Positions 3,831 to 48,077 of a stretch of 64,000 nt of DNA are shown here, one piece after another. Each line of letters opens with the position of its first letter. Within the stretch, counting starts at the first letter, position 1. The position numbers and the translations under genes were made by a program. The stretch spans positions 57,673 through 121,672 of IMG/VR virus record IMGVR_UViG_3300034121_000940. One strand, written 5' to 3'. The stretch is from a virus. Under the pieces are notes generated by a model. That model was not told the origin of the DNA and made no database searches. It saw nothing but the letters and a program-made list of their open reading frames with translations.

Positions 3831-6800
3831 TTATAAAGAATAAACACCTAATCTATAAACATCAAATTGTCCTGAGTTATTAACTCCACCTCCGGATGTA
3901 CCCATTGTTCTTACACCAAAGAAATTTAATCCTACCGTTGATGCGGGTAGATTTGTATTTAATACACCTTGTGCAACAACACCAGTTTCTTTATTTACAA
4001 TTCTATAAATAACATCTGTTGATCCAGGAGCATTGTATAAGTAACAAGAATAAATAGTAGTAATAGCGGCACCAGCAGTTCTGTTTGACGGGAATGAAGC
4101 ACCTAAATCTGTTTTAGTTGCTGTACCTGAAGCATCATTATACATAATTTGCAAGTTAGCATCTCCTGAATCATTAGCAAAAGCTATGATGTTTGTTAGT
4201 GCAGATGGTTGATCATTATTACTACCACCAATTGCTAAATCTGCTGTTGAAGAAGCTACTCCCCAAAAGTTATGTGTACCAGTAGCTGTAGCTGTATCTG
4301 AAATATTAAATTCACCAGTATATAAAAAACCACCAGTAACATACCATAATAATACAGAACCTCTCATACCAGAATATCTACCAGTTGCTGTTATAGACGC
4401 TGTTACACCTAATCTAATACTTTTGGTAGCATATGAAGTTGTTCCTACAGAACGTGCTGTATTTGTACCACTTGTTGATAAAGTAATACCAGCAGTAGTA
4501 TCAATAGTAGTTGAATTATTTCTAAAAGTTGCACCTCTCCAAATTTCATTACCTTGTAGTTTAGGAATTAACGATTCTTCATATACTGGTATATTTAATG
4601 TAGTTCCTGTAAGAGTTGCTGCACCACTTGTACCAGTATTTGTTACAGTTAATATATCACTAATTGTTTCTGCAGCTGTTCTATATTTTACAATACCATT
4701 ATCACTTACTAAAATTTTACCAGTATTAGTAGTAGCATTTGCTACAGTAGATATTTTAACGTTACCATTAACTTCTAATTTGGCTGATGGTGTAGATGTA
4801 CCAATACCAAGATCACCATTTGCTAACATAGTCATTTTGATGTTACCAAAATTACTCCATCTAAATAAAGGTCTATTAACAACTTCTGAACTACCGATTC
4901 TTACATCATGGTTTAATAATGGTTCTGTACCTGTATCATTTGTTCCATTACCAAAAAGATATAAAGCAATCTTATCACTTGCATTATAACCCTGCAATGT
5001 TGGAATAAAATTACTATCAACACCTGTAGCATTACTAATTCTAAAATAAGATGAATCATCACTTACATCAAATTGAGCAATAGTTTCACTATCACTAGGT
5101 ATCTCTATACTTCTTACATGAAGCGGTGCTGTAGGATTAATAAGTCCGACACCTACTTTACCTAAATTATCAATTACAAATGGTGATGAATCTACATTGT
5201 TATTATCTTCTACTAAAAATGAATTAGCAGATGATGTATTATTAACATGTAGTCTAGCTGTTGGTGATGTAACTGTAGTACCAATACTTACATTACCTCC
5301 AGTTACTCTAACCGTTTCTTGTGATCCATCAAATAATCTTATAAGAGGTCCTGAAATGATAGCCTGGTCTCCTTGAGCTCTAAAGTAATTATCATCGCCA
5401 TACTTTAATTCTGACCAAGTTGCACTATCAATTGTTAATTGAGCACTTATATCTTTTAATCTTACATTACCTAAAGTATCTAATTTATAAGCAGGTGTTG
5501 TGGTTCCAATACCAACATTGCCATTTTTAAGTAAATGAATTCCTGTGGTTAAATCATAACCAGTTGTTGATGATGAACTTCCTACAGTCCAATGAGAACT
5601 TATTAATGAAGAATTTAAACCGTATGTACCAAAAAACACGGTACCATTTGTATCACTTGTTGATATTTTACTCACTCCAGTCCAACCACCGGTATTAAGT
5701 GAGCTCATATCTAAATTTGTTCCTGCACCATAACTTCCAAACAAAATACCTCCAGCTGGTCCAAGTTTGTAAGTACCATCTACTTCTAATTTTTCTGTTG
5801 GTGTAGTTGTACCTATACCAATATTAGTTCCTGTATCAGTAATAATACCTTGTTTAATTATTTTTCCTGTTGTACCATCAAATACAGGTATAGTATTATT
5901 AATTGAACTTGCAGGACCAGTTACAGCACCTACAATATTTTTTTGAATTACATTCCAGTATTGACCTACAGTAGCTTGATTACCAGACACAGTCCCATCT
6001 GTGTTACATATAATCATATCTCCTACTTCAACATCTATACCGCTTGCACCACCAATTTTACCAGCAACACTTGCAATATACATCCATCCGGCATCTGCTG
6101 CAGGATAATTAGGATTTGTAGAACAATCAATAGTTCCTTTATATACTAAAGCATTAGAATTACCTAATATATTGTCTGTATAAACTTTGACTGCATTCTG
6201 TGTTGGGTATAATGTATCTGATGTACCTAATGAAACATCAGTTGATTTATTTGCTTGATCTTCCGGAGTATATCCTAAAGCAGTAGCAACTGTAATTTCT
6301 TCTACAGAACCTGTTCCTGCTGTGGTTCTACCAAGAATTTTAGAAGTTGACATTGATAGCTTACTAACACTAATTGCAGCAGTTGCTGAAATATCAGAAT
6401 CTACAATAGTACTAGCAGGACTTTGAAAAACTCCATTTACAACTTTTACAACACCTGTTCCAGCAACAGAAGGGATTGTAGTATGAACGTGAGATGGATG
6501 TAATGAATCAAAATAAAATACAACTTGTCTTGATTGTGTTACATTTTTTTGTGCCCATAATTCTATATAAATTCTTTCTGTTGATAGAATTGTTGTTTGA
6601 GGCATTGTAACATTTGCAATATACTGTGCTGTTGTTACAGGATCATAAATATAAACATCATCTGAATTAGCTAAAGATGTATATACTCCTGTACTTGAAT
6701 TATATTTATAAATTCTTATTTGAAATTGTGTTTGATTAGTTGAGCCTCCACTTCCAGCAACAGATGCCCAAATATTAAAATCCCATAAACCTCCAGGAAT

Positions 6801-7349
6801 ATCAGTAACTCCAGGTGTTCCTGTAATAGTAACAAATCCACATACTAAACTGTATGAACCATTTGTTAAATTAGCAGAAGTAACAGAACCTGTACCTACA
6901 TTATATGTTATACCTAATTGAGATACTGCTACAGGGGAGGTTGGTAAACCAGTAGTAGGAGATATATCAGTAGTATTTTGGTAGTTTAAATAATAAACTA
7001 TACCACCCCCTCCGGAACCACCGTTAGGAATAGCTCCCGGAACCCATGCGCTACCATTCCACTGAAGTGTTTGACCAGTTGAAGGTGTAGCATTACTTAC
7101 AGGATTTCCTTGTAAACCATCAACAGTTGGGTTAGGATATGTACCAGTTAAATCACCACCAGCAGAACCCGTTACTCCCATTATATTCCAAGATGTTCCA
7201 TCTGAATAATAATATTGGTCAGACCAATACACTATTCTTTTAGTATTAGCACTTGCTAAATTAGTTGTAATATCTAATGTATCTGCTTTTAAATTATTAA
7301 TATCACTGCCTTGAAGGTTGATATCAACAAAAAACTTCTTCTCTGCCAT
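3831..7349 (-). CDS. tail fibre / receptor-binding protein
   Basis: G/T/S-rich; five GNVGIGTTTP-type repeats; GGDLTGTYPNPT motif. Start placed at MAEKKFF (7349) because the upstream gene has the same N-terminus. Confidence 0.75.
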   Translation of the reverse strand: MAEKKFFVDINLQGSDINNLKADTLDITTNLASANTKRIVYWSDQYYYSDGTSWNIMGVTGSAGGDLTGTYPNPTVDGLQGNPVSNATPSTGQTLQWNGSAWVPGAIPNGGSGGGGIVYYLNYQNTTDISPTTGLPTSPVAVSQLGITYNVGTGSVTSANLTNGSYSLVCGFVTITGTPGVTDIPGGLWDFNIWASVAGSGGSTNQTQFQIRIYKYNSSTGVYTSLANSDDVYIYDPVTTAQYIANVTMPQTTILSTERIYIELWAQKNVTQSRQVVFYFDSLHPSHVHTTIPSVAGTGVVKVVNGVFQSPASTIVDSDISATAAISVSKLSMSTSKILGRTTAGTGSVEEITVATALGYTPEDQANKSTDVSLGTSDTLYPTQNAVKVYTDNILGNSNALVYKGTIDCSTNPNYPAADAGWMYIASVAGKIGGASGIDVEVGDMIICNTDGTVSGNQATVGQYWNVIQKNIVGAVTGPASSINNTIPVFDGTTGKIIKQGIITDTGTNIGIGTTTPTEKLEVDGTYKLGPAGGILFGSYGAGTNLDMSSLNTGGWTGVSKISTSDTNGTVFFGTYGLNSSLISSHWTVGSSSSTTGYDLTTGIHLLKNGNVGIGTTTPAYKLDTLGNVRLKDISAQLTIDSATWSELKYGDDNYFRAQGDQAIISGPLIRLFDGSQETVRVTGGNVSIGTTVTSPTARLHVNNTSSANSFLVEDNNNVDSSPFVIDNLGKVGVGLINPTAPLHVRSIEIPSDSETIAQFDVSDDSSYFRISNATGVDSNFIPTLQGYNASDKIALYLFGNGTNDTGTEPLLNHDVRIGSSEVVNRPLFRWSNFGNIKMTMLANGDLGIGTSTPSAKLEVNGNVKISTVANATTNTGKILVSDNGIVKYRTAAETISDILTVTNTGTSGAATLTGTTLNIPVYEESLIPKLQGNEIWRGATFRNNSTTIDTTAGITLSTSGTNTARSVGTTSYATKSIRLGVTASITATGRYSGMRGSVLLWYVTGGFLYTGEFNISDTATATGTHNFWGVASSTADLAIGGSNNDQPSALTNIIAFANDSGDANLQIMYNDASGTATKTDLGASFPSNRTAGAAITTIYSCYLYNAPGSTDVIYRIVNKETGVVAQGVLNTNLPASTVGLNFFGVRTMGTSGGGVNNSGQFDVYRLGVYSL

Positions 7350-7383
7350 TTTATTATTTTTTACAAATATAGTATATTTAAAA

Positions 7384-7412
7384 AAACCCACCCCTATTAT
7401 GGAGTGGGTTTA
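7384..7412 (-). terminator. intrinsic terminator
   Basis: aaacccac.cc / ggagtgggttt stem with a T-run on the minus strand. Confidence 0.55.
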
Positions 7413-7436: not shown

Positions 7437-9392
7437 TTATAAATTACCATTTGCCTTAACCAAACAAATAGAAACATCAGTTGAAAAAGCAATATTACTT
7501 CTTACTGTCATATCACCAGCAGTAATATCATAATTAATTTCAATAGGATCAGTATTACTACTACCCTGATAAGTATTTACAATTAAGAAAGGAGTACCTA
7601 AAGGATTAACAAAGTTAAAATAATATTCCCCTGCTATTGGTTCAAAAATCCAATCACCAATTGAAATAATTTCAGTGTGAGATAGTGCTTTAATAGCATT
7701 ATTTCTATCAGTTACTTCTTGAGAAATAGCAGAATCAGTATAAGCATTAGCATTATCTTGTGCATTAGCTTGTGCAGCTGAAGTAACATCATCAACATAA
7801 ATTTTGTTAGCAGCGTCACCGTCAGCAGTTGGAGCTGGTAAGTTTGTAATTGTATTACCAGCAGCCATGTTTAATTGAGTATAAACATCTATTCCATTAA
7901 CAGTTGATGATGTAAGTTCTTCTGTTACAACCAGTCCAGCATTGTTTATTGTGCCACCACCCATGTCAAGGGTTCCAGTCATAGTACCACCAGCTAAGTC
8001 TAATTTAAGAGCATCAGCATCGTCAACATATGTTTTGTTGGTAGCATCACCTCCGTTAATTGGTGCAGCAAGGTCAACAATTTTATTATTATCTAAAGAA
8101 AGTTCACCATTTAGTGTGCCACCATTGATTGATAAAAAGTTATTATCAACATAAGTTTTGTTAGTAGCATCAGTTCCAAGAGTAGGTGTACCTGTTAAAT
8201 TTGTGATTTTACTAATTCCAGCAAGGCTTAAATTTCCACCACTCCATGTAAATCCAGCAGTACCAGCATGATTACTTACCTCATCTGTTCTAACAGCATT
8301 AAGATTAGTAACCTCGTTCATACCCATATCAATACTACCCGACATAGTACCACCAGTAAGTGATAATTTCAATGCATCTTGGTCATCTACGTAAGTTTTG
8401 TTAGCTGCGTCTCCACCGTTAGTTGGAGCTGTTAAATTTTTAGGTAAATTGTTACCACCAAAATCTAAGCCATTATCAACTATAATGTCAGAACCATAAC
8501 CATCAAGGTTATTAGTTGAAATTCTATCAGCAGAAACAAAATCAGCACCGCTAATACTATTACCATTCATATCAATAGTACCAGACATAGTACCACCTGC
8601 CAATGGCAACTTGTTAGATGTGTTATCATCTACATAAGTTTTGTTAGCTGCGTCTCCACCGTTAGTTGGTGCTGGTAAGTTGATAATAGTTTGAGTATTT
8701 ACAGCATCTAAAGAACTATCTAAAGTAATATTTTCATTAATATATGCAGACAAAATATCTGTAACAACAGAACCAGCACCAGCAATTTGATTACCAGACA
8801 TATGAATATCACCAGACATAGTACCACCTTGCTTGCTTAACTTGTCGTTAATCTCAGGAGTAATTTGAGCATCAATTTTACCTTGTAATGTAGCTGGAGT
8901 AATAACAACTGCACCACTAATAATACCATCATTAGCTTCTTCTTGTGTAGCTAAACGAGAAATACCATCTACTGAATCAGTTGCAATAACTATGTTACCT
9001 TGTAAAATCAACCAGTCTGCAATTGTTGCACCAGCATTATCAACTTTAGCAACAATTGAATCACCAACTTGTACAGACTCTCCTAAGAAAGTACCTGCTG
9101 CAGTTGCTGCCCAAAAGAAACCTTTTAATGCTGATCCGTCTGCAATATCAGGAGTATTAGTTGTTGGATCATATCCACCTTGGAAGATCAAACCACCTGT
9201 TACTGCTGAGATATCAGATAAGTTAGCTACATTTTGAGTAGCTGTACCATTGAAATATTGTAAACGGTGTGAAGCTGAATCATATCCAAAAGCACCTTCC
9301 GTTGAACCAATACCCGTGTTAGTTCCAATTTTTGCGTTAGTTAACGCACTACCTTGTAGATTAATGTCTACAAAAAACTTTTTTTCTGCCAT
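7437..9392 (-). CDS. tail fibre protein with DAxNKxYVD repeats
   Basis: Five P..G.DA(A/T)NK(T/I)YVD...L...GGTM(S/T)G repeats typical of phage fibres. Confidence 0.75.
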   Translation of the reverse strand: MAEKKFFVDINLQGSALTNAKIGTNTGIGSTEGAFGYDSASHRLQYFNGTATQNVANLSDISAVTGGLIFQGGYDPTTNTPDIADGSALKGFFWAATAAGTFLGESVQVGDSIVAKVDNAGATIADWLILQGNIVIATDSVDGISRLATQEEANDGIISGAVVITPATLQGKIDAQITPEINDKLSKQGGTMSGDIHMSGNQIAGAGSVVTDILSAYINENITLDSSLDAVNTQTIINLPAPTNGGDAANKTYVDDNTSNKLPLAGGTMSGTIDMNGNSISGADFVSADRISTNNLDGYGSDIIVDNGLDFGGNNLPKNLTAPTNGGDAANKTYVDDQDALKLSLTGGTMSGSIDMGMNEVTNLNAVRTDEVSNHAGTAGFTWSGGNLSLAGISKITNLTGTPTLGTDATNKTYVDNNFLSINGGTLNGELSLDNNKIVDLAAPINGGDATNKTYVDDADALKLDLAGGTMTGTLDMGGGTINNAGLVVTEELTSSTVNGIDVYTQLNMAAGNTITNLPAPTADGDAANKIYVDDVTSAAQANAQDNANAYTDSAISQEVTDRNNAIKALSHTEIISIGDWIFEPIAGEYYFNFVNPLGTPFLIVNTYQGSSNTDPIEINYDITAGDMTVRSNIAFSTDVSICLVKANGNL

Positions 9393-10430: not shown

Positions 10431-11402
10431 CTAACCTATTTGATTCACAGTAATTATTGTTGATGGAATTGCTGGTCCACCCATTGCACCTGTATTATAT
10501 TGTAATACTATGTGATCATTATCTGAACCCCAATATATTTCTACATAATCATTTGCTGATACTGCTAAAAAGAAATTCCAAGCAGCAACAATATAAGGAC
10601 TATTTGTATTTACATTTACTCTTGTATTTGTATCAGGAACTGCAACTCCATTTTTTGTTAACCATATTTCTACAGTATTACCATTTCCACCACCACCAGT
10701 ATTATGTAATTGAAATGAAAAAGCAAAATTATATATACCTGTATTACTAGCTTTTATTCTACTGTTATTGATTACGTTGAACCCGTTAGTACAAGAAAGA
10801 TCTGTTTGTCTAACTAATACAGGTTGACCTGTTGATAAAGCATTTACAGATTGTGTTGCAACATCATAAAAAGAACCTCTATATCCACCAACTGCACCTG
10901 GTACACCTTGAATACCCTGAATTCCTTGTATTCCTTGAATCCCTTGAGGACCCTGAATACCTTGAATACCTTGAATACCTTGTGGTCCTTGTAAATCTCC
11001 TGCATCATTCCATGTATTAGTTAATGTATCCCATACATATAAAGAACCATCTGATTCAATAATCCATGCTGTACCAGCTGTTCCTGGAGAACCACCAGCG
11101 CCAGCTAAAAAACTTGCTAAATCAGGATATGATCCTAATACAGTTAGAGCAGCTCCAGTTTCTCCTTGTATTCCTTGAGGTCCAGCAATTCCTTGTGGAC
11201 CTTGTGGACCAGGTATGCCTTGTGGACCTTGTGTTCCTGTGCCTACTTGAGAAATAAAATCTGCTACGGATATTGCACCGGTTAAATAATCATCATCACG
11301 TCTTTTATCTTTTATACCAATAGGTAAAAGTGTTTTTGCTGGATCAATAACATGAAAAAGTCTTTTATCTTTTAGCCATGATATAAAATTTAAAATATCC
11401 AT
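10431..11402 (-). CDS. collagen-like (Gly-X-Y) fibre protein with a C1q/BclA-like C-terminal domain
   Basis: Two GPQ/GIQ tracts; C-terminal GIYNFAFSFQL...NDYVEIYW beta domain. Confidence 0.75.
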   Translation of the reverse strand: MDILNFISWLKDKRLFHVIDPAKTLLPIGIKDKRRDDDYLTGAISVADFISQVGTGTQGPQGIPGPQGPQGIAGPQGIQGETGAALTVLGSYPDLASFLAGAGGSPGTAGTAWIIESDGSLYVWDTLTNTWNDAGDLQGPQGIQGIQGIQGPQGIQGIQGIQGIQGVPGAVGGYRGSFYDVATQSVNALSTGQPVLVRQTDLSCTNGFNVINNSRIKASNTGIYNFAFSFQLHNTGGGGNGNTVEIWLTKNGVAVPDTNTRVNVNTNSPYIVAAWNFFLAVSANDYVEIYWGSDNDHIVLQYNTGAMGGPAIPSTIITVNQIG

Positions 11403-13471: not shown

Positions 13472-13738
13472 TAGTAGTTTGTTGGTTCAACAAATATAAA
13501 AAAATTAATTTGTAATGTAAGAGCATATTAAAATAAAAAACCCAAGCAGTAATTCTTGATCAGAGAAACTTACTTGGGTGTTGCTACAGTTATATGGTTG
13601 CTTATAGAGGTAACGCGTTTACACCTATAAATCAGTTCCACTTTCCTGAGCAGAGAAGACCAGAGAGTAAGCGAGCAGTTCTTATGGTATGCCCTCCTGG
13701 CACTGAGCCTGCAGAATAGAATCTACAGGGATGGAGTG

Positions 13739-13812
13739 CGCTTCTTCTAAGGCTCGAACTTAGGACCCCCAGATTAACAGTCTAGTGCTCTAACCAACTG
13801 AGCTAAAGAAGC
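13739..13812 (-). tRNA. tRNA-Asn(GTT)
   Basis: Full cloverleaf GCTTCTT TA GCTC-AGTTGGTTA-GAGC A CTAGA-CTGTTAA-TCTGG GGGTC CTAAG-TTCGAGC-CTTAG AAGAAGC G; CCA not encoded. Confidence 0.93.
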
Positions 13813-19534: not shown

Positions 19535-19915
19535 ATGGAAACAGTATTTAAAGTAGGTGATAAAGTCTTTGACATTAAGTATGGTTGGGGAACAGTTAAA
19601 GAAGCAGGTAAGTATTCAAAACGTGGTTTATATGTTGCTTTTGAAAAAAATACTGCAAGTTACTATTCAAATGGTGCAGCATTTGATTGTGTAACACCAA
19701 CACTCTCATTCACAGAATACACCTTACAAGGTTTTAGTCAAGAAAGACTGATTATACTGCCTGAAGTTGGTGAGTTGTGTTTGATGAGAGATGCAGATAT
19801 TGAAGAATGGAAAGCGGTTGCATTTGAACAATATGATTCAAGTGATAAATATCCATTTATTACAGAAAAAGGTTTTGCTTTTAAACAAATGAAAAGAATT
19901 AAAATATTAGACTAA
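19535..19915 (+). CDS. hypothetical protein (FKVGDKVFD...GWG.V family)
   Basis: SH3-like N-terminus common in Bacteroidota phages. Confidence 0.65.
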   Translation: METVFKVGDKVFDIKYGWGTVKEAGKYSKRGLYVAFEKNTASYYSNGAAFDCVTPTLSFTEYTLQGFSQERLIILPEVGELCLMRDADIEEWKAVAFEQYDSSDKYPFITEKGFAFKQMKRIKILD

Positions 19916-21015
19916 TGATTACAAAAGATGATGTACAAGACATTGCATTAGCTAAAACTGATGATCATAGGAGATGCTCAATTGTTTTAGGAACCGGAGT
20001 TGGGAAAACTAGAGTTGGTCTGAACCATATCAATAGAAATACATCTCCTCTAAACAAAGTATTGGTTGTTGCACCAAAGAAATCTATATTTCAATCTTGG
20101 ATTGATGATGCTGGTAAATTTGATATGGCTAATCTACTTGGTAGAATAGTATTTACTACTTATCTAAGCATAAACAAACATGATCCAAATGATTATGATA
20201 TTGTTTACTTGGATGAAGTACATAGTCTTCTTGATAGTCACAGACTATTCTTAGAGAACTTTAAGGGTAAAATACTAGGTCTTACAGGCACACCACCAAA
20301 GTATGATGGGTCTGAAAAAGGTAGAATGGTTAATGATTTTTGTCCTGTAGTATATAGTTTTCAAGCTGATGATGCTGTAGATAACAATATCTTAAATGAT
20401 TACAAGATATTTGTTCATATGCTTGAATTATCAAATGAAAAAAATTACTTGGTTAAGACTAGTAATAATGCATTTGTTACTTCAGAGAAATTAAACTATC
20501 AGTATTGGTCTCATAGAGTTGAGTCTGGTGGTGGTAATTTGCAAATGCTTAGAGTAATGAGAATGCGTGCTCTTATGGAGTATCCTAGTAAAGAAAGATA
20601 TACTAAGAAACTTATTGAGAGTATATCTCAGAAGAGTAAAGTAATTGTATTTGCTAATACTCAAGAGCAGGCTGATAAACTATCTCAATACTCATATCAC
20701 AGCGGTAATAGCAGAAGTGATGAGAACCTTGAGTTATTCAAAAATAGTAGTATAAATTGCCTATCAACTGTACATCAGTTGAGTGAAGGTGTTAATATTC
20801 CTAATTTGAGACAAGGTATTATCATGCATGCTTATGGTAATGAGAGAAAGTCAGCTCAAAGAATAGGTAGGCTTCTAAGACTTAATCCAGATGACACAGC
20901 TGTAGTGCATATATTATGCTATAGAAACACTATGGATGAGCAGTGGGTTAAACAAGCCTTAGAAGGATTTGATCAAACTAAGATAACTTACAAAACATTT
21001 AATGTACAATACTGA
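19915..21015 (+). CDS. superfamily II DExH helicase
   Basis: GTGVGKT, LDEVH, GLTGTP, LSEGVNIP and QRIGRLLR. Confidence 0.92.
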   Translation: MITKDDVQDIALAKTDDHRRCSIVLGTGVGKTRVGLNHINRNTSPLNKVLVVAPKKSIFQSWIDDAGKFDMANLLGRIVFTTYLSINKHDPNDYDIVYLDEVHSLLDSHRLFLENFKGKILGLTGTPPKYDGSEKGRMVNDFCPVVYSFQADDAVDNNILNDYKIFVHMLELSNEKNYLVKTSNNAFVTSEKLNYQYWSHRVESGGGNLQMLRVMRMRALMEYPSKERYTKKLIESISQKSKVIVFANTQEQADKLSQYSYHSGNSRSDENLELFKNSSINCLSTVHQLSEGVNIPNLRQGIIMHAYGNERKSAQRIGRLLRLNPDDTAVVHILCYRNTMDEQWVKQALEGFDQTKITYKTFNVQY

Positions 21016-21037
21016 GAAAAATTCCATAAATTATAGT

Positions 21038-21277
21038 ATGGAGAACAAAACACATAAACTAGTATTATTCAATGATGATGTGCATGACTTTTTATATGTG
21101 ATTGCATGTCTTATGAAATATTGTGACCATGATCCACATCAGGCAGAACAGTGTGCTCTTATAGCACATAGTAATGGTTCTATAGATGTTGCATCTGGTG
21201 ATTTTATGAAGATACTAGAGATTCATGAAAATCTTAGTAAGATGGAAATGAAAACTGAAATATCAGAGTATGCTTAA
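21038..21277 (+). CDS. clpS: ClpS N-degron adaptor homologue
   Basis: LVLFNDDVHDFLYVIACLMKYCDHDPHQAEQCALIAHSNG matches the Bacteroidota-type ClpS signature (NDD...H.G). Confidence 0.85.
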   Translation: MENKTHKLVLFNDDVHDFLYVIACLMKYCDHDPHQAEQCALIAHSNGSIDVASGDFMKILEIHENLSKMEMKTEISEYA

Positions 21278-22088: not shown

Positions 22089-22143
22089 ATTCCTGTGCGA
22101 TCCATTAGTGGGTGGCTGACCTTAAAGCAGGCGACTGGTTCTA

Positions 22144-22219
22144 TGTGTTGTTCCCTTGAGAAAGGAGATGAGTAAATGTGGATAGTTGAGTTGCCACCAA
22201 CACAGAGGTTCTCAACCTC
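22144..22219 (+). ncRNA. structured RNA element with a loop-loop pseudoknot
   Basis: TGTGTTG/CAACACA stem; loop TTGAGAA is complementary to loop TTCTCAA of the adjacent GAGG/CCTC hairpin. Confidence 0.55.
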
Positions 22220-22522
22220 AAACTGAATGGTAGCCAATTATGAATCGCTATTAAGCAATACTTGCAACTTAACAAGGTTTAATGGAAAGATTGGTGATTT
22301 AAGTATTTTGACATATGTCATAACCTAGTTACTGAGGGTTTTATGAGGTTTTGTAGCTATACATACCTAGAGAAGTAACAAATAGCAAAACAGATTGACC
22401 CAAAGGCATGGGTGTAGTGTTAATAAGTGCTGACCTCTCAAATGGAGAGTTAAGTATGAGGGCGATGTATCACTTATTAATAATGACTCTACAATATGAA
22501 CAGGTAGCTTCCTGTTATTTAT

Positions 22523-22682
22523 GATGAGATGGTGGAATTGGTTAGACACTATCATTTTTTGTGGAAAATAAATGTGAGTATAAGGCGTGGTTAGCTGCCA
22601 AAAGCAATACTGAGAGAGGAACTCTTGAAGCAAAAAATGATAATCCAGACGTGGAATGCAGGTTCAATTCCTGTTCTCATCA
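22523..22682 (+). ncRNA. tRNA-Leu-like RNA with the anticodon loop replaced by a ~70-nt domain
   Basis: Acceptor GATGAGA/TCTCATC+A; Leu-type D arm TGGTGGAATTGGTTAGACAC; 12-bp helix TATCATTTTTTG/CAAAAAATGATA; variable arm TCCA-GACG-TGGA; T arm GCAGG-TTCAATT-CCTGT. Confidence 0.7.
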
Positions 22683-22744
22683 CTAAATCCTGACACCGCT
22701 GTTTACTACAGCTTGAGGTTGACAGCCAGGAAAGACTGGTAATT

Positions 22745-22798
22745 GGGCGACTACTGAAGTGGATCAGGTGGTGATGGTTCGAGTCCATATGTTGTCCA
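22745..22798 (+). ncRNA. truncated tRNA-like element lacking one arm
   Basis: GGGCGAC/GTTGTCC+A acceptor, a single CTGA/TCAG hairpin, and T arm ATGG-TTCGAGT-CCAT. Confidence 0.45.
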
Positions 22799-23062
22799 CA
22801 ACTTCGCTGGTTAATGGGAGAGGTTGGTATCTTACCGTCTCGCGTTAATGGATTACAGTCTTGAAAGAGTTAAACCTATTTTATAGGCCGTTTTTATTCT
22901 GTAAATACTGACACCAACCTCTGCAAGTTTGAAACAAAACTGTACTGCTTAGAAAGATGGAACCGTATAGGCTTGACCTATGAAGATACACGGAAAAATT
23001 GGAGAAAAAGTGTGTATGATGTCCGACAAGTTTGCCACAGGGTATGTTTTAGCAGGACAATT

Positions 23063-23120
23063 AACCGGTGATTAGATGAATATTTACTTGACATTCATAA
23101 ACATCTATCACCGGTTTTTT
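23063..23120 (+). terminator. long hairpin / terminator closing the RNA island
   Basis: AACCGGTGAT.AGATG / CATCTATCACCGGTT followed by a T-run. Confidence 0.6.
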
Positions 23121-23131
23121 AACTTAAATTA

Positions 23132-23653
23132 ATGTATATGAAAGTAACAGTAATGTTTGTAATGATTGGAGTATTTACAGCCGGTTTAGTAAGCTTAGGG
23201 AAAAGTGATAAAAAAGAAATTAAAGCTGTAAAGAAAGTGATTAAAGATACTACAGAAGTAGTAGCAGTAGATAGTTCTAAGTTAAATAAAGAACTATTAG
23301 TAAGTTATATCTTAAAACAAGATATAAAACATCCTGAGATTGCTTATAGTATAGCAATGGGTGAATCAGGAATATGTAGTAATCTATTCAAATCAAACAA
23401 CAACTTGTTTGGTATGAAACATCCTGGAATTAGACCTACAAAGAGTCTAGGTAGAAAAAATGGTTTTGCACATTTTGAGTCTTGGCAACATAGTATACAA
23501 GACTACAAGTTATATCTAGAATTTGTTGGTGGACATATGATGAGTAAGCAACAGTATCTATTACATCTAGATAGAAATTATGCTCACAGAGGATATAGTT
23601 CTTATATCAGTAAGTTTTTTGAAGAATTTTATGCACTGAAAGATCAGTTATGA
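23132..23653 (+). CDS. GH73-like glucosaminidase (peptidoglycan hydrolase) with an N-terminal signal/anchor
   Basis: AMGESG...NNLFGMK...FAHFESWQHSIQDY...YA motifs; hydrophobic N-terminus. Confidence 0.75.
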   Translation: MYMKVTVMFVMIGVFTAGLVSLGKSDKKEIKAVKKVIKDTTEVVAVDSSKLNKELLVSYILKQDIKHPEIAYSIAMGESGICSNLFKSNNNLFGMKHPGIRPTKSLGRKNGFAHFESWQHSIQDYKLYLEFVGGHMMSKQQYLLHLDRNYAHRGYSSYISKFFEEFYALKDQL

Positions 23654-34946: not shown

Positions 34947-35363
34947 ATGGAAAAATTCTTATTTGGAAAAGAAGAATGTAAGAATCTGATTGCAATGATT
35001 AAGTCACCTGATGAAAGTAACCATGAAATGGCAAAAACAATATTAGAATCCCTTGACATTGAAGATAATCTTCAGTGGGTTTTTATCATTATCGTATTTG
35101 CTGGTAAGTCTGAAAGATTCTGGATGCATAATAATTTCTATACTAATCTCACAAAAAGATTTGGTAGTTTTCTCCAAGCTTCTTTAGATAACAGAACAAT
35201 GAGTTTGACACTCTTGAATACTGTTTTACCTAATGAAGTAAAGTTGAAGTCTCCTTATGTAGAGTTATATTTTGAATTATACTTTCTAGAAATGAAAAAG
35301 AGTCTGAATCAATATGGGTATGATTTTGTAAATGAAATTCAAATAAAAGCAAAAGATGAATAA
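34947..35363 (+). CDS. hypothetical protein with the MxxSxDxxNxxMAxxIL motif
   Basis: Overlaps the start of the vWA gene. Confidence 0.65.
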   Translation: MEKFLFGKEECKNLIAMIKSPDESNHEMAKTILESLDIEDNLQWVFIIIVFAGKSERFWMHNNFYTNLTKRFGSFLQASLDNRTMSLTLLNTVLPNEVKLKSPYVELYFELYFLEMKKSLNQYGYDFVNEIQIKAKDE

Positions 35364-37758
35364 AGTAGATTTACTAAGCAAGGCCAGTAAGGACCTTATG
35401 CTTAAAGAGCCGTATTATGGCTATTTTCTAATCCAGCTTAACAAGCATTGGAGAAATGACATTCCTACAGCAGGAGTTAGTAAGAATGGAATTAACTACC
35501 AGTTAGCAATTAATGAAACTTTCTGGTGTGAATTGACGGATCTACATAGATTAGGTTTGTTAAAACATGAGCTATTACACATTGCATTTGGTCACTTAAC
35601 AGCTTATCACAGTTTTGCTGATAGAAGAATGGCCAATATTGCAATGGATTAATTCCTAGTCCCGCTATACAGTAATGTATAGTTGAAAGCTTTAAATTGA
35701 CGGGAAGTTCCTAAAGCTTTATCTACCAAGTATAGGTGGTGACACACTATATGGCTGAAGTAATTACTCAGGTATGGTAAAAAAGATAAAGATGTCTAAA
35801 TGGATAATCCGCAGCCAAAGTTCTTTAAAATGTTTGTGTAATAGAAATTAATTAGTATATTTGTTTTTATGAGACAAAAATTATTAATCACAGATGATAT
35901 TATACAGCAATTATATGCAACAGGTTTAAGTTGTCAAAAAATTGCAAATAAATTAAATTGCTCAGAAAGTTATATTAACAAAAAACTCAAGAGCTTGAAT
36001 ATTACTAAAAGATCTAATTCTGTTTATAGAAAAAGATCATGGAATGAAAACTTTTTTAATACAATAGACACTGAAGAAAAAGCATATTGGCTTGGTTTTT
36101 TATATGCAGATGGTTGTGTACATGATACACCTAATGGTCAAAAGTTAATTACTTTATGTGTGAAAGATAAAGAAGTGATTGAAAAGTTTATTAAATCTAT
36201 TAAGGGTGATTTTGTAGTTAAAGAATACAATAATGTATATGGTATATATTTAACAAGTAAAATCATGTTTAATGACTTATGTAAACTTGGTTGTATTCCA
36301 AGAAAATCTTTAAATCTTAAATTTCCTGATATCAATAATGATTATATAAATCATTTTATAAGAGGTTATTTTGATGGAGATGGTACAGTATTTATCTGTA
36401 ATCCTAAAAATTACAACAATACAAATACTGTTTATAAATCAATCGGTATTGGAATATGTGGAACATATGAAATGTTAAGTATTTTATCAAAACATGCTCC
36501 AATTAATTTTCCAAAAAAAGATAAAAGAAAACTTAGTAATATTTGGTATTCTTCTACATTTGGTACAAATAAAGCATTAACTTTTTATAATTATTTATAC
36601 AATGATGCTACTATTTGGTTAGATAGAAAAAAGAATAAATTTGAAAATTATTTTAAAGAAAGAGGTTCAGAGACTACAATAAGCCACCCTACTGGGGTGA
36701 AGGTATAGTCCGATCTGCAGGGAAACTTGCAGCTAACATAAATGATGGAGATTAACCAGTACATTGATTGTGCGTGGTTACCTGGTGGTGAGCATACAGC
36801 AGATGAATTTGCTAAAATTAAAGCAAAAGTCATGAGTGAGTATGATCAAGCAACAGCTAATGGAGCTACACCAGAAGAATTAAAAGAGATTATGTCTAAG
36901 TTGCCTCCAAGAGGTATAATGATTGATGATTATCATGAGTTGAATCTTGATACAAAGGCAGGTACTAAATACTACTATAAGAAGCTGAAAGAGGCTCAGG
37001 AGAAGAAAGAACAAACCGGTAGTTCTGGTTCAGCAGCTATGGATCAATTGCTTGATGAAATGGAGCAAGGTAATGGTCCTGGTTATGATCATAGTACATG
37101 GGATGAATTTGAAGGCATAGGTGAGACAGAACAGAAACTTATGGACCGTCAGATTCAGAGAATTCTTACTGAAGCTAAGGAACAAACTGAAAAGAAAAGA
37201 GGTTATGTTCCTGGAGAAATGTCTGCTCTTATTAAAGTAGAAGAATTTGTAAAACCAAAATTTGATTGGAGAGGTTATGTAAGAAGATTTACTGGTACAA
37301 GTACAAAAGTATATACCAAGAAACTTCAGAGAAAGGAAAACAGAAGATTTCCGGCTTTTCCAGGTCTAAAAATTAAAATGCGTCAACACATCTTATTAGC
37401 TATTGATACTTCAGGTTCAGTAAGTGATTCAGAGTTAAAAGAGTTTATGAATGAGATTCATCACATTTATAAAACAGGTGTTGATATTACTATTATCCAA
37501 TGTGATACAAAAATCAACAGTATTGAGCCCTATAAAGGCAAGAATGATTTGAATATTGTTGGTAGAGGTGGGACTGAATTTGATCCCGTCCTAGAGTATT
37601 ATGATGCAAACATCAGAAAGTTTACAAGTTTAATATACTTTACTGATGGTGAGTGTTATACAAGTATAAAGCCAAAAGGCAAAATATTGTGGGTATTATC
37701 TGAAAGATCAGACATGAATGATAGATTACCAGGCAAAGTTATTAAGTTAGAGTTATAA
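35356..37758 (+). CDS. metallopeptidase-like + vWA protein (DUF2201 type), spliced: exons 35356-35649 and 36745-37758, 435 aa
   Basis: HELLH; joining restores ANIAMD|MEINQYI; MIDAS DTSGS, GRGGTEF and YFTDG. Confidence 0.88.
35833..35863 (+). promoter_or_regulatory. Bacteroidota sigma-A promoter for the intron endonuclease
   Basis: TTTG-N19-TATATTTG, 5 nt before ATG 35869. Confidence 0.65.
35869..36708 (+). CDS. intron-encoded LAGLIDADG homing endonuclease with an N-terminal HTH
   Basis: YWLGFLYADG and FIRGYFDGDG motifs. Confidence 0.9.
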   Translation: MRQKLLITDDIIQQLYATGLSCQKIANKLNCSESYINKKLKSLNITKRSNSVYRKRSWNENFFNTIDTEEKAYWLGFLYADGCVHDTPNGQKLITLCVKDKEVIEKFIKSIKGDFVVKEYNNVYGIYLTSKIMFNDLCKLGCIPRKSLNLKFPDINNDYINHFIRGYFDGDGTVFICNPKNYNNTNTVYKSIGIGICGTYEMLSILSKHAPINFPKKDKRKLSNIWYSSTFGTNKALTFYNYLYNDATIWLDRKKNKFENYFKERGSETTISHPTGVKV

Positions 37759-42444: not shown

Positions 42445-42639
42445 ATGGATTTAAAAAGTAAAGAATACCTGTTACATGAGTTTCCAGTTGGAAAACATAA
42501 AGGTGAAAGAATAAGTGAATGTAGAAGTCTAAATTATTTAGAGTGGATGTTTGAAACACTTAAACTAGATGATACTACAAGACAAGTAATAGGTCTTAGA
42601 ATTTATCAGTTATCAAATCCTAATGCACAAAGAAGATGA
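42445..42639 (+). CDS. small DUF3820 / ExoX C-terminal-like protein
   Basis: FPVGKHKGERISE....YLEWM. Confidence 0.6.
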   Translation: MDLKSKEYLLHEFPVGKHKGERISECRSLNYLEWMFETLKLDDTTRQVIGLRIYQLSNPNAQRR

Positions 42640-45588
42640 GGACCAATTATGTAATGGACTACGAGACTTTAAAGAATTGTTTTGTGGCTGTGTATGAGGA
42701 TGTTAAGTCTGACAATAAAGAAATATTTGTGTGTCATGAATCCAGAAATGATATCTTTGATTTAATAACATTTTTAGAACACAATATTGCCTATAATGAA
42801 TGGCATATAAGCTTTAATGGCTTAGCTTTTGATGCTCAAATAACTCAGCATATTCTTAAAAATAAGCAGATGTTACTTGCAAGCAATGGAGACAAGATAG
42901 CAAGATTTCTTTATTACAAAGCACAAGATGTAATTAATAGACAAAACAATGGTGAGTTTGCAGAGTTTAAACCCAAAGACATCAAGATTAGTCAGATTGA
43001 TTTGTTTAAACTTAATCACTGGGATAATCCAGCTAAAAGAAGTTCATTGAAGTGGATTCAGTATACAATGGATTGGACCAACATAGTTGACATGCCTATT
43101 CATCATACTAAGGAAATTACTGCGGATGAAATTGACATGGTTATTAGTTACTGTATTAATGATGTCAAGTCTACTAAAGCTATTCTGATGTTATCTAAGA
43201 GTCAGATTGATCTCCGGAAAAATCTAACTATGGAGTATAACATAGATTTATTCAGTGCATCTGAGCCTAGAATTTCTAAAGAATTGTTCCTGCATTTCTT
43301 GAGTGAGAAAACTGGATACAAGAAATGGGACCTTAAACAACTAAGAACTTATAGAACTCAGATTAAGTTTGAAGATATAATTCTACCTTATGTAAGTTTT
43401 GAGACTGCAACATTTCAAAATCTACTAAAGAAGTTTAAGGAGATTGTTTTGAACCCTACACATACTAAAGGAGGCTTTAAGTATTCCGTCCAGTATAAGG
43501 GTGTGAAAACAGATTTTGGTCTGGGTGGTGTGCATGGTGCTAAAACAAGTGGAGTATATGAATCAGATGATGAGATGGTAATCATGTCTTCAGATGTTGT
43601 CAGCTACTATCCAAACTTGGCTATTAGAAATAAGTGGGCTCCATACCATCTTCCTAAAGCAGAATTCTGTGAGCTGTATGAATGGTTCTTTGATGAGAGA
43701 AAAAAGATAAGCAAAAAGGACCCAAAAAACTATGTATATAAGATCATCTTAAATTCAACTTATGGTTTGAGTAATGATGAGAATAGTTTCTTGTATGATC
43801 CTGAGTTTACTATGAGAATTACTGTAAATGGTCAGCTTAGTCTAATGATGCTGTATGAGATGATTTGTGAAGAAATTCCAGATGTCATCCCATTAATGCA
43901 AAATACAGATGGTCTAGAGACAATGATTCCTAGAAAGTATTATGATAAGTATATGGAAATATGCGAGAGATGGCAGGATATAACTAATTTGCAGCTAGAG
44001 CATGATACATATAGTAAAGTAGTGCTTGGTGACGTTAATATTAGCGTCTTAACCTTGTGAATTGCTGGAATATCCTAAAGCTTTATAAACTACAACATGG
44101 CTTGAAAAGGCGGGTGTGAATGTTAAAAATTATAAAGATGTCTAATGGACAATCAGCAGCCAAGACCCTTTAAAATGGGTAAGGTTCAGAGACTATCGAA
44201 ACTACAGTAATGTTAACTGGAAAGGAGTAGAGTACACTTAAATGTGGAAGTGCAAGGCAATTATTAATCTTTTGTTTGGTTATAACAATTATATTGCATA
44301 TATTGCAGTATGAAAGCAAACAAAAATCATAAAAGGTGTGGTATTTATTGTATTAAAAACACTATAAACAATAAAGTTTATATTGGAAAATCAATAGATA
44401 TCTACAGAAGAATTAAAGAGCACATAAATATGTTAAACTTAAAGCGTAAAGATGAAAATGCTCATCTTACAAATGCTTGGCATAAATATGGAGCTGATTC
44501 TTTTGAATATAGTGTATTAGAATATTTAGAAGCAGATGAAAAAAATGTTGCTATAAGAGAATTACATTGGATGAAACAGTTCAATGCTCTTAATAAGGAA
44601 TATGGGTATAATTTAAGAAGTGATTCAGATTCAAAAATGATAGTTCATTTAGATACAAGTACTAAAATATCCAACAGGCTTAAAGCTGAATGGAAAGCTG
44701 GTATTAGAGATGGACATAGTGCAAAATTAAAAAGTTCTTGGAAACAAGACACTAATAGAAAAACAGCACAATCAGCATTGTTATCAAAAACACTTACTAA
44801 ATATGCTTATGAGTTATACAATTTAGAACAAGTTTATATTAAAACTTGTACTTATCAAGAACTTATTGAGTTAAGTCTTAAAAACTGTATTGCTACATTC
44901 TGTAGAAAAAAACTTGATTACATAAAATTTAAAGCCTATTATATTAAAAAGATTAAAATTGAAGATATAGTCCAAACTAATTAGAAATAATTAGATAAGA
45001 AGTAATAATTACATTGCTATTACTGAGAGAAAGAAAGTAGACAAAGAAGTCTATGATGAACTCAAGAAAAAAGTTCCATATGATGTTTATGAAGAAATTG
45101 ATGGAGAATATTTCTTCAAAGCAACTAAGTCAAAAGGCCGGTTTGAGTTTGCTAATCTAGCATTACACAAAAACAAAAGCTTCTTGATTATTCCAAAGGC
45201 TGTATTTATGTATTTTGTACATGGAATAAAACCTGAAGAGTATCTTCTTACTGAGAAGAACATATTTGATTACTGCGGTGGTGTAAAAATTAAAGGGAAT
45301 TGGGAATTTGTAGAACATCATGTAGATGATGGTATATATGCAAAAGACAAATTACAAGATACATTGAGGTATTATATCTCTAAGACCGGTAGTAAAGTAA
45401 TCAAACAAAACAGAGGAGACAACCGTGAGATTCAGATAGAAGCTGGACGCTGGTTGCAAACAGTTTATGTAAAACATGTAGAAAAGCCATTTGATGATTA
45501 TGGTATCAATCTGAGTTATTACTTAGATAAGATTTATAAAGAGGTTGAATCTCTTGAGCCAGTAGTAAATCAATTAAAATTATTTTGA
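42636..45588 (+). CDS. polB: family B DNA polymerase, spliced: exons 42636-44035 and 45003-45588, 661 aa
   Basis: Exo DYE and FN...FD; SDVVSYYPN, KIILNSTYG and NTDG; joining restores GDV|NNYIA followed by KSKGRF. Confidence 0.92.
44036..45002 (+). mobile_element. group I intron (967 nt) in polB
   Basis: P1 GACGU|UAA-UA-UUAGCGUC with U-G; AATTGCTGGAA, AATCAGCAGCCAA, GTTCAGAGACTA and GATATAGTCC; terminal G at 45002. Confidence 0.92.
44310..44984 (+). CDS. intron-encoded GIY-YIG homing endonuclease
   Basis: CGIYCI...KVYIGKS..IYRR..EH...RE..W...GYN. Confidence 0.9.
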   Translation: MKANKNHKRCGIYCIKNTINNKVYIGKSIDIYRRIKEHINMLNLKRKDENAHLTNAWHKYGADSFEYSVLEYLEADEKNVAIRELHWMKQFNALNKEYGYNLRSDSDSKMIVHLDTSTKISNRLKAEWKAGIRDGHSAKLKSSWKQDTNRKTAQSALLSKTLTKYAYELYNLEQVYIKTCTYQELIELSLKNCIATFCRKKLDYIKFKAYYIKKIKIEDIVQTN

Positions 45589-47529: not shown

Positions 47530-48077
47530 TGAGTGAAGAAAATGTATCTTATAATGACACAATCCGTATTGTAAGGATTGTTATCAAGTGTTCTGATTTA
47601 TTATCAGACTATGATCTTTTAGAAGGTTATGTGAAGATTAAAAAAAGCAAATATATAAAGCATGAATTAAAAGAAACATTCTTTAATCTTGGTGAATATA
47701 TTGATAAGTTTAGCTCAGCATTCTTAAAACCTTTTGTAGAGGAAGATGATATGACTCAGATGGAATTGCAAGCTATGTTTAATGAGTTTAATAAAGGTAT
47801 TTACATTGATAACCCCCAGAAAACAGCATTCATATTACTCTATTCTAAAGTTTATTCTATAATGAATGATCTTTCAGAAATGGAATATAATGATACTATG
47901 CTAGAAGGGTTGCGTAATATATGTAAAGATTTTATTAATGAGTGTTATAAGAAACATTTTGGATTATTTAACATGCAACACAATGATGAAAATTTAGTAG
48001 TTACAATTATAACTGCTATAGATAGTTTAGGTAAAAAAATAATGTACGGTAATAAAGATGAAGGTAGAATTGATTGA
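47529..48077 (+). CDS. hypothetical helical protein
   Basis: ORF track; TAATG overlap. Confidence 0.65.
   Translation: MSEENVSYNDTIRIVRIVIKCSDLLSDYDLLEGYVKIKKSKYIKHELKETFFNLGEYIDKFSSAFLKPFVEEDDMTQMELQAMFNEFNKGIYIDNPQKTAFILLYSKVYSIMNDLSEMEYNDTMLEGLRNICKDFINECYKKHFGLFNMQHNDENLVVTIITAIDSLGKKIMYGNKDEGRID

Follow-up and report, generated by a model that had tools for sequence, protein, structure and literature searches.

A putative non-decoding RNA on a tRNA-Leu body, with a folded domain at the site of the anticodon loop, in an uncultured freshwater crAss-like phage

The locus and its source genome

We analyzed a stretch of 64,000 nt (hereafter the window) from the viral record IMGVR_UViG_3300034121_000940, which corresponds to bases 57673-121672 of this 121,672-bp record (estimated completeness 100%). 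The element under study lies at 22523-22682 of the window (plus strand) and has the outline of a tRNA-Leu in which a structured domain takes the place of the anticodon loop. The genome has four crAss-type Pfam matches (Crassvirus major capsid protein, muzzle protein, and tail ring proteins 1 and 2), its DNA polymerase is less than 37% identical to any counterpart from a cultured phage, and the stretch is found in many lake-water metagenomes, with at least half of its sampled words present in 11 of the 24 runs listed. The genome is therefore that of an uncultured freshwater crAss-like phage. General knowledge of the Crassvirales points to a host among the Bacteroidota.

The element is located in a gene-free stretch of about 1.1 kb, with genes up to about 22055 on one side and a glucosaminidase gene at 23132 on the other. 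Further upstream are a helicase gene (19915-21015) and a gene for a ClpS adaptor (PF02617, 51.4 bits; 21002-21277, plus strand), the latter being conserved in this phage group. The Pfam scan (122 open reading frames, ORFs; 15 plus 107) and the PHROGs scan revealed nothing RNA-related near the element. Four ORFs (3831-7391, 7437-9392, 10431-11402, and 42636-44060) were covered by PHROGs only, while the two giant ORFs at 50173-63866 were in neither scan and two locus-border ORFs were unscanned. A blastn search of 22400-22900 against cultured phages gave no match.

A tRNA-Leu body without an anticodon loop

The Rfam tRNA family RF00005 matches 22523-22682 (plus strand) from end to end with 36.1 bits (cut-off 29; E-value 6.6e-4 over 64 kb), one of two Rfam hits in the window. 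A separate search of the 951 nt of 22200-23150, with permissive filters, gives it an E-value of 9.8e-6. The match takes in all 71 model positions, with 77 nt in place of three consensus loop positions. In the same 951 nt, no intron, group I intron, tmRNA, ribozyme or riboswitch family was found at E ≤ 10, and the two remaining matches are at chance level (E 1.3 and 2.6) and both lie outside the element. ARAGORN in default mode reported tRNA-Asn at 13738-13812 (minus strand) alone and missed the element; with introns allowed, it called a tRNA-Leu(caa) with a 72-nt ‘intron,’ a call that requires two bases to separate the D and anticodon stems. The tRNA search over the phage's own genome gave the tRNA-Asn alone and likewise missed the homologous copy in locus L155 (see below), so this search is insensitive to the long insert. 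The fold-energy z-score of the element is -3.11, and one in 200 shuffles folds as well.

The body consists of a 7-bp acceptor stem (5′ strand GATGAGA, 22523-22529, with seven of seven Watson-Crick pairs to 22675-22681; 3′ strand TCTCATC plus the discriminator A73, 22675-22682), a D arm of the bacterial tRNA-Leu type (GGTGGAATTGGTTAGACAC, with A14, A15, G18, and G19; 22532-22549), a class II variable arm (TCCA-GACG-TGGA, 22644-22655), and a T arm (GCAGG-TTCAATT-CCTGT, 22658-22674), all on the plus strand and with the D and T arms placed by the Rfam alignment. An initial annotation made from the sequence alone had proposed exactly these parts, and both direct reading and the Rfam score agree with it. 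A CCA is not encoded after A73, where the next bases are CTA; the ordinary tRNA-Asn of this phage also lacks an encoded CCA. Position 3-70 is U-A, and the absence of G3-U70 had been annotated correctly. Bacterial tRNA-Leu shares the 7-bp acceptor stem, A73, a GGYGGAATTGGTAGAC-type D arm, the long variable arm, the T arm, and the lack of an encoded CCA with the window RNA, and differs in its 7-nt anticodon loop, at the site of which the window RNA has a 12-bp rod and a three-way junction. Instead of a 7-nt loop, 81 nt separate positions 31 and 39. Since these nucleotides form the rod and the junction, the RNA would be unable to decode. The set of features of a decoding elongator tRNA-Leu (5-bp anticodon stem, 7-nt loop, U33, Leu anticodon, and purine 37) is lacking.

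The rod and the three-way-junction head

The rod is the anticodon stem extended to 12 perfect base pairs, with the 5′ strand TATCATTTTTTG at 22550-22561 paired to the 3′ strand CAAAAAATGATA at 22631-22642 (both plus strand), and it encloses 22562-22630 as had been claimed. According to two alignments of homologues (A1 and A2), the enclosed part, hereafter the head, is a three-way junction that replaces the anticodon loop. It comprises J1/2 (22563-22574) with an invariant GGAAAAUAAAUG, P2 (22576-22611; a GUAU/AUAC stem, internal loops, and an apical hairpin), P3 (22612-22626; GAGAG-AGGAA-CUCUU), and then J3/1 (GAAG), all on the plus strand. The pairings initially assigned to the head needed some revision. 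AGTAT/ATACT was retained, GGC/GCC was reassigned on the basis of the homologues as GC/GC plus UGGU/GCCA, and AGAG-GAA-CTCT moves in register to the P3 hairpin given above, in which an A-U pair becomes U-A in other members.

No Rfam family matches the head at E ≤ 10. Hammerhead-, sarcin-ricin-, purine-riboswitch-, and GTPase-center-like appearances, noted by eye in the window copy, are lost in the homologues and were rejected. Base pairing of the invariant GGAAAAUAAAUG with the phage genome was rejected as well, as two sites with at most one mismatch were found (one being the element's own reverse complement) against 2.5 expected. The head also contains a mini-frame AUG-NNN-GUA-UAA (AUG-UGA in the window), which is probably structural.

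Homologues and covariation

Seven further loci carry the same RNA, specifically L155 (on the same contig as L165), L160, L161, L162, L163, L164, and L166. They were collected by a scan for the acceptor stem and T arm together with three pattern scans. Complete copies have a length of 158-160 nt, and the copy in L166 is truncated at its 5′ end. The mean column identity of alignment A1 is 85% over the eight sequences. Pairs were counted on a hand-written structure laid over A1: 93.1% of 364 cells are paired (shuffles 84.7 ± 1.0), both partners differ in 19 of the 47 pairs (shuffles 10.0 ± 1.8), and none of 500 shuffles reached the observed value in either case. When the partners were slid by one to three columns as a control, 32-45% of the cells were paired and 1-7 pairs changed on both sides. 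The initial annotation had named covariation among homologues as a check on its reading, and the homologues indeed covary, with invariant junctions in the head.

Both-side changes occur in five of the seven acceptor pairs, two of the four variable-arm pairs, and six of the 12 rod pairs, the overall length of the RNA remaining constant at 158-160 nt. Within the head, two of four pairs change in this way in P2c (UGGU/GCCA to UGGG/CCCA or UGAGA/UCUCA), one of five in P2a, and one of five in P3 (A-U to U-A), while P2b is invariant. The D-stem pair U11-A24 becomes C-G in five homologues, and 100% of the T-arm cells are paired. The variable-arm loop GACG (G126, A127, C128, and G129) is invariant in all eight sequences. 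Invariant or nearly so are the GGAAAAUAAAUG junction, the blocks GUAUAAGGCGUG and CAAAAGCAAUAC, and the motif GAG-NGG(A/C)A-CUC, and alignment A2 contains 49 invariant columns in the head plus distal rod.

Four different acceptor stems bear the same head (GATGAGA, GGTGAGA, AGTCAGG, and AGCAGGT), and the head is found in different contexts: after a conserved leader (L163, L155), after a terminator (L164), after a small ORF (L160), and inside a tRNA array, with a tRNA on one side and a tmRNA on the other (L161). This tmRNA is phage-borne (L161:10313-10692; Rfam, 77.4 bits) and located in the array 150 nt downstream of the L161 homologue. A covariance model built on the head (R1), run over 618,553 nt of related loci, gave nine matches at E ≤ 2.1e-18, all of them known copies, followed by matches with E-values of 2.2 and 3. 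As R1 recovers known copies alone, the heads of the related loci L003, L008, and L012 belong to a different family. A head pattern run over representative genomes of 185,579 species found no match, and a second head pattern run over viral contigs returned the same three contigs again. The pattern TCATTTTTTG-N(55-80)-CAAAAAATGA gave 56 hits in viral contigs but is palindromic, AT-rich, and unspecific; these hits were not used, and the corresponding loci (L081-L136) were excluded from later scans.

Intron signatures and RNA-library contigs

For each homologue, we considered every way of keeping 7 nt between the strands of a 5-bp anticodon stem; L164 was examined by hand because MAFFT had shifted its stem columns. 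A Leu anticodon loop (U33, R37) can be rebuilt by excision in three of the eight sequences (window, L155, and L163), where the loops UUUAAAA, UUUAAAU or UUUAAAC with the anticodon UAA result from joining UUU to AAAN. No such loop can be rebuilt in L160, L161, L162, L164, and L166. Group I introns usually have a length of at least 200 nt and a P3-P9 core, features that the insert of 72-81 nt does not have; together with the silence of Rfam at E ≤ 10, this bears out the early view that it is no group I intron. The hallmarks of archaeal/eukaryal-type tRNA introns are absent too: with 12 unbroken base pairs and no bulge, the helix contains no bulge-helix-bulge motif, and a Leu loop is restorable in three of eight sequences only.

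Assembled contigs of two RNA libraries span the insert. A 166-nt contig of library X20 contains 22537-22672 as a 136-nt insert with 0 differences and spans rod, head, and rod; it is flanked at both ends by what looks like Illumina adapter sequence. In library X12, a variant copy covers 22507-22661 unspliced. No exon-exon joints were seen in the assembled contigs of any of the four RNA runs. Parts of 22300-23000 have no RNA-contig cover, which we do not interpret. The unspliced RNA contigs are a hint, not proof, and an intron is improbable. All eight homologues keep the insert, which is not simply removable in five of them, in line with the initial idea of a non-decoding tRNA mimic on a tRNA-Leu body.

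A variable RNA island and a wider family on one chassis

Relatives of the locus (L001-L015) were collected via the glucosaminidase protein (54-87% identical). At the matching intergenic site they have a variable RNA island, which differs by presence or absence of a cargo RNA. Six of the 13 syntenic loci L001-L013 contain a tRNA-shaped cargo (L003, L006, L007, L008, L009, and L012), one (L010) contains a leader without cargo, and in the other six (L001, L002, L004, L005, L011, and L013) the island is empty, with an intergenic length of 77-171 nt. In L003 and L008/L012, the cargo has a class I body whose loop is replaced by 51-52 nt; that of L009 has a 10-nt loop, and that of L006 is a different RNA of 126 nt. 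In L007 (1071-1216; also L141), a 28-nt tandem duplication spans the 3′ part of the head and the anticodon stem, giving a cargo of 146 nt instead of 118 nt.

The window RNA is a member of a wider phage RNA family, in which unrelated middle parts are carried on one tRNA-Leu chassis. The fetched loci were scanned for a Leu-type D arm, a T arm, and acceptor pairing, yielding 30 rows, six of which were dropped (three concatenated neighboring genes, two ordinary tRNA-Leu of 78 nt in L168 and 84 nt in L161 whose anticodon loops are normal, and one non-Leu body). This leaves 24 distinct Leu-type chassis RNAs of 70-160 nt in contigs of phages and metagenome-assembled genomes (MAGs). A73 is present in 22 of the 24, and the acceptor 5′ strand reads AGTCAGG in 12 and GGTCAGG in three. 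The mean identity is 86% over the first 25 nt and 83% over the last 25 nt, while identity in the middle parts is 43%, no higher than in shuffled sequence (43%). In the members of 70-73 nt, the loop has 4, 5 or a non-canonical 7 nt. In the representative genomes of 185,579 species, a chassis 25-mer was found in six contigs, all from MAGs (bins of Flavobacterium, twice, Chitinophagaceae, Neisseriaceae, Peregrinibacteria, and Saccharibacteria). Each of the six has another middle part, and several are located within tRNA arrays. The full-text literature searched, in which subscription journals are thinly covered, yielded no description of such RNAs, and the wider family is apparently undescribed.

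Leader, trailer and neighboring elements

Most cargos are preceded by a conserved leader, composed of a ACAGATTGACCCAAAGGCATGGG block, a variable hairpin, and ACAATCTGAACAGG-TGCTT-CCTGTTATTTAT ending at the first base of the cargo. In the window, the 5′ block (AAACAGATTGACCCAAAGGCATGGG, 22388-22412, plus strand) includes a TTGACC box and a small hairpin ACCC-AAAGGCAT-GGGT. An identical 20-mer is present in 15 viral contigs, 60-130 nt upstream of tRNA-like cargos or protein genes, with a single copy in this genome. The leader hairpin AACAGG-TAGCTT-CCTGTT with the following ATTTAT (22499-22522, plus strand) ends exactly at the first base of the RNA (U at -1). Its pattern occurs in 21 viral contigs; in the loci inspected, the cargo starts directly after TTATTTAT. 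A simple scan scored this hairpin as terminator-like, and a simple promoter scan found nothing above shuffles. The whole may act as a promoter plus 5′ leader, or else be a small RNA that ends in its own terminator.

As a cassette (22388-22522 in the window, plus strand; L137-L159 elsewhere), the leader starts with ACAGATTGACCCAAAGGCATGGG, ends with the hairpin and TTATTT(A/T)T, and is flanked by an inverted repeat (CAGATTG/CAATCTG). In sequence, the hairpin stem ACAGG/CCTGT is identical to the chassis T stem. Leaders also lie ahead of protein genes (L137, L138, L144, and L149), and up to three copies occur outside this genome.

Downstream of the element, two trailer hairpins are found at 22698-22739 (plus strand; GCUGU-UUACU-ACAGC and CCAG-GAAAGA-CUGG), with (U)UGACAG before the second. 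Both covary in L008/L012 (GCCU/AGGC and CUUG/CAAG), and the second precedes the next tRNA-like RNA by 5-6 nt in the window, L143, L150, and L167. This next RNA (22745-22798, plus strand; also L012:3467-3520) has a length of 54 nt and lacks an anticodon arm altogether. Its 7-bp acceptor stem (GGGCGAC/GUUGUCC) includes G3-U70 and is combined with A73, a small D-like hairpin with GG in the loop, and a 4-bp T arm whose loop reads UUCGAGU. Two acceptor pairs differ in L012, namely pair 6 (A-U to G-C) and pair 7 (C-G to U-G), and G3-U70 is retained there. We take G3-U70 together with A73 to be an alanine identity mark. Neither Rfam nor ARAGORN called the 54-nt RNA at 22745-22798; an RNA-library contig covers 22669-22806 and thus includes it.

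Another conserved non-coding element (22143-22232, plus strand; GUGUUGUUCCCUUGAGAAAGG...CAACACAGAGGYUCUCAACCUC) is common to L003, L007, L008, and L145, and L169 has a core similar to its CCCUUGAGAAAGG. Elsewhere in the window, a DUF2201 metallopeptidase-like gene (within 35356-37758, plus strand) lies in two pieces on either side of a LAGLIDADG ORF, and Thy1 (ThyX) spans two ORFs (48058-48273 and 48623-49057, plus strand); both look split by mobile elements. Further GIY-YIG, HNH, and LAGLIDADG ORFs are found in the window, with several homing endonucleases by Pfam.

Interpretation and rival explanations

On balance, we lean towards reading 22523-22682 (plus strand) as the gene for a stable, non-decoding RNA of about 160 nt that derives from tRNA-Leu and has the head as its working part. 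The RNA would be transcribed together with the conserved leader, cut by RNase P at 22523 and by the 3′ tRNase after A22682, and provided with CCA by host enzymes. LeuRS would then charge it, and charging and the tRNA fold would protect it from exonucleases. The Leu body would in this way supply processing, stability, and charging, while the head would act by binding a factor of host or phage origin (protein or small molecule). The variable RNA island and the occurrence in phage tRNA arrays suggest a role in host takeover or counter-defence.

The sequence contains the determinants of an Escherichia coli-type LeuRS: A73, A15:U48, G18G19, an A before G21 (A20a), and U8:A14. A73 and U48 are invariant in all eight homologues, and the window and L155 have one extra U ahead of the A before G21. 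In E. coli, Leu identity resides in A73, A15:U48, G18G19, A20a, and the D/T-loop elbow and not in the anticodon or the variable arm, and tRNA-Leu variants without anticodon and variable arms are still charged while C73 abolishes charging (PMC9976931, in excerpt). The anticodon-independence of LeuRS, on which the initial annotation had relied, is thus matched by an identity set in the sequence, and because bacterial LeuRS ignores the anticodon arm, the RNA is probably leucylated. Engineered tRNAs in which a foreign structured RNA is swapped for the anticodon stem-loop are processed, modified, and protected in E. coli (PMC3753655, in excerpt), and the YrlA RNA of Mycobacterium smegmatis is cut by RNase P and gains CCA, which, perhaps with charging, protects it as its authors suggest (PMC4201824, in excerpt).

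Several points weigh against this interpretation. The homologues are close (effective sequence number 1.24), so covariation events are few, and most head helices show no variation. The RNA evidence is limited to assembled contigs, which show no RNA ends, CCA tail or strand and leave room for DNA carry-over or rare spliced forms. The UUUAAAN loop that can be rebuilt in the window, L155, and L163 has its UAA anticodon split at 34/35, presumably the classical site of tRNA-Leu introns. Some cargos are of class I, for which the synthetases normally need the anticodon, so charging cannot extend to every cargo. The searches yielded no partner for the head, and no neighboring gene co-occurs with it. 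Finally, the census of the family is biased because several loci were fetched by the chassis 25-mer and the scan demanded a Leu-type D arm.

The chassis itself (body, acceptor end, and variable arm) could be the active part, serving as a decoy or sponge for host tRNA-targeting defences (nucleases, nucleotidyl- or acetyl-transferases), with a head that merely keeps the RNA off the ribosome and beyond the reach of anticodon nucleases. The far stronger conservation of the chassis than of the middles across the 24 RNAs, the invariant GACG of the variable-arm loop, and the location in tRNA arrays and a variable island are consistent with such a decoy. Defences directed at tRNAs exist, and Septu cuts the variable loop of class II tRNA-Tyr (PMC13096335, in excerpt). 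Still, a decoy leaves the invariant junctions, the covarying head helices, and the constant rod length unexplained, and a simple stem-loop such as that of the 70-73-nt members would do; we consider it unlikely on the whole. No defence system is known to act against tRNA-Leu bodies in Bacteroidota, and no search aimed at one was made. The decoy for anticodon nucleases proposed in the initial annotation is possible, although the conservation of the head is not explained by it. An intron-bearing tRNA-Leu(UAA or CAA), freed of a 72-74-nt insert by a protein-dependent or ribozyme mechanism to give a decoding tRNA, would account for the tRNA-Leu(caa) call of ARAGORN and for the UAA loops with U33 and A37 in the window, L155, and L163. 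This is quite improbable in our judgment, given that five of the eight same-head homologues cannot rebuild a Leu loop, that neither a bulge-helix-bulge nor a group I or ribozyme match (E ≤ 10) is present, and that the four RNA runs contain no joints while two RNA contigs cross the insert; the loops of the 70-73-nt family members do not fit it either.

The placement of the same leader ahead of protein genes in other contigs, and of a short ORF directly before a tRNA-like RNA in L143, could point to a cis-acting processing or stability element (‘punctuation’ by RNase P/Z cuts), or else the element could be a decaying tRNA gene with a junk insertion. Both are very unlikely: punctuation needs the acceptor stem and T arm alone and not a Leu-type D arm, variable arm, and head, while junk would not keep 49 invariant A2 columns and compensatory changes at eight loci in unrelated contexts. 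The two remaining proposals of the initial annotation are not supported. A Leu donor or sink for the N-degron pathway would draw on the ClpS gene at 21002-21277, 1.3 kb upstream, and on a chassis that looks Leu-chargeable. ClpS is a backbone gene, however, present in four of five related records including that of L005, where the island has no cargo. It is present in one of the three records with the same RNA and absent from the 41-kb record of L160 (68% complete). Domain searches of the 121,672-bp genome found no Leu_Phe_trans (L/F-transferase), TROVE or PolyA_pol (CCA-adding) domain, and the head would have no explanation; we give this proposal hardly any credence. In Bacteroides thetaiotaomicron, which belongs to the control set, ClpS and L/F-transferase were not found and a TROVE/Ro match was present. 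A minimal tmRNA-like ligand of stalled ribosomes would share the outline of a tRNA body, a long helix, and a structured domain, and the L161 homologue adjoins a phage tmRNA. With U-A at 3-70, no tag frame, and no tmRNA call by Rfam or ARAGORN, the RNA is no tmRNA, as had been stated from the outset, and the geometry suggests that its full D stem and 12-bp rod would clash with the 30S A site. A tmRNA-like role is thus extremely improbable.

Comparison with known systems

To our knowledge, only a few tRNA-like non-coding RNAs have an assigned role (tmRNA, Y RNAs, and the 3′ ends of plant viruses), and none of these has a folded domain at the site of the anticodon loop. Stable RNAs of unknown function that are processed like tRNAs are encoded in the tRNA cluster of phage T4 (‘species 1 and 2,’ rnaC and rnaD), to which we liken the window RNA by description only. 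The tmRNA shares with it a chargeable tRNA-like body, a long helix, a non-tRNA domain, and presumably charging by a synthetase that ignores the anticodon, but has a length of about 360 nt, G3-U70, a tag frame, and a pseudoknot ring. The window RNA (about 160 nt) lacks these and has a full D stem and a variable arm.

There is also a likeness to the engineered ‘tRNA scaffold’ (Ponchon/Dardel; PMC3753655, in excerpt), in which the acceptor, T, and D arms are kept and a structured RNA sits on the continued helix, as here. The scaffold is a laboratory construct, whereas the window RNA is natural, phage-encoded, built on a Leu chassis with a variable arm, and conserved together with its head. YrlA and other bacterial Y RNAs (PMC4201824, in excerpt) also combine a tRNA-like domain (T and D arms and an acceptor-like stem) with a long helix at the anticodon-arm site. 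YrlA ends in its long Ro-binding helix and has a closed acceptor stem, while the window RNA is reversed and ends at the acceptor stem; moreover, this genome has no TROVE/Rsr gene, and in the window RNA the rod varies in sequence while the head is conserved. In the allo-tRNAs and irregular tRNA-like polycistrons (Mukai et al., 2017, as reviewed in PMC7609411, in excerpt), identity (Ser, Ala) is anticodon-independent and some members are non-translating, with a role unknown. Allo-tRNAs combine a normal anticodon loop with acceptor/T stems of 8/4 or 9/3, in contrast to the 7/5 arrangement without an anticodon loop in the window RNA. By analogy, the window RNA would be a kind of ‘tRNA-like non-coding RNA’ and a natural counterpart of the engineered scaffold.

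Implications for phage biology

A broader proposal is tentative and, in our estimate, possible more than it is probable. Bacteroidota phages, crAss-like phages included, may encode modular, anticodon-less RNAs on a chargeable tRNA-Leu chassis with swappable heads, acting as RNA effectors against host factors or defence. Such RNAs would be natural ‘tRNA-scaffold aptamers,’ with an Ala-type minihelix beside the window RNA as a further example, and the halves of the chassis could double as recombination arms. The phage would be doing what RNA engineers do with the ‘tRNA scaffold,’ on a Leu chassis, the one kind that can be charged without an anticodon arm. The family accounts for some of the ‘pseudo,’ ‘undetermined,’ and ‘intron-containing’ tRNA calls in phage genomes and advises caution with intron readings. 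If the heads are binding modules, these RNAs would constitute a new class of RNA-based phage effectors and a natural toolkit of stable aptamer carriers.

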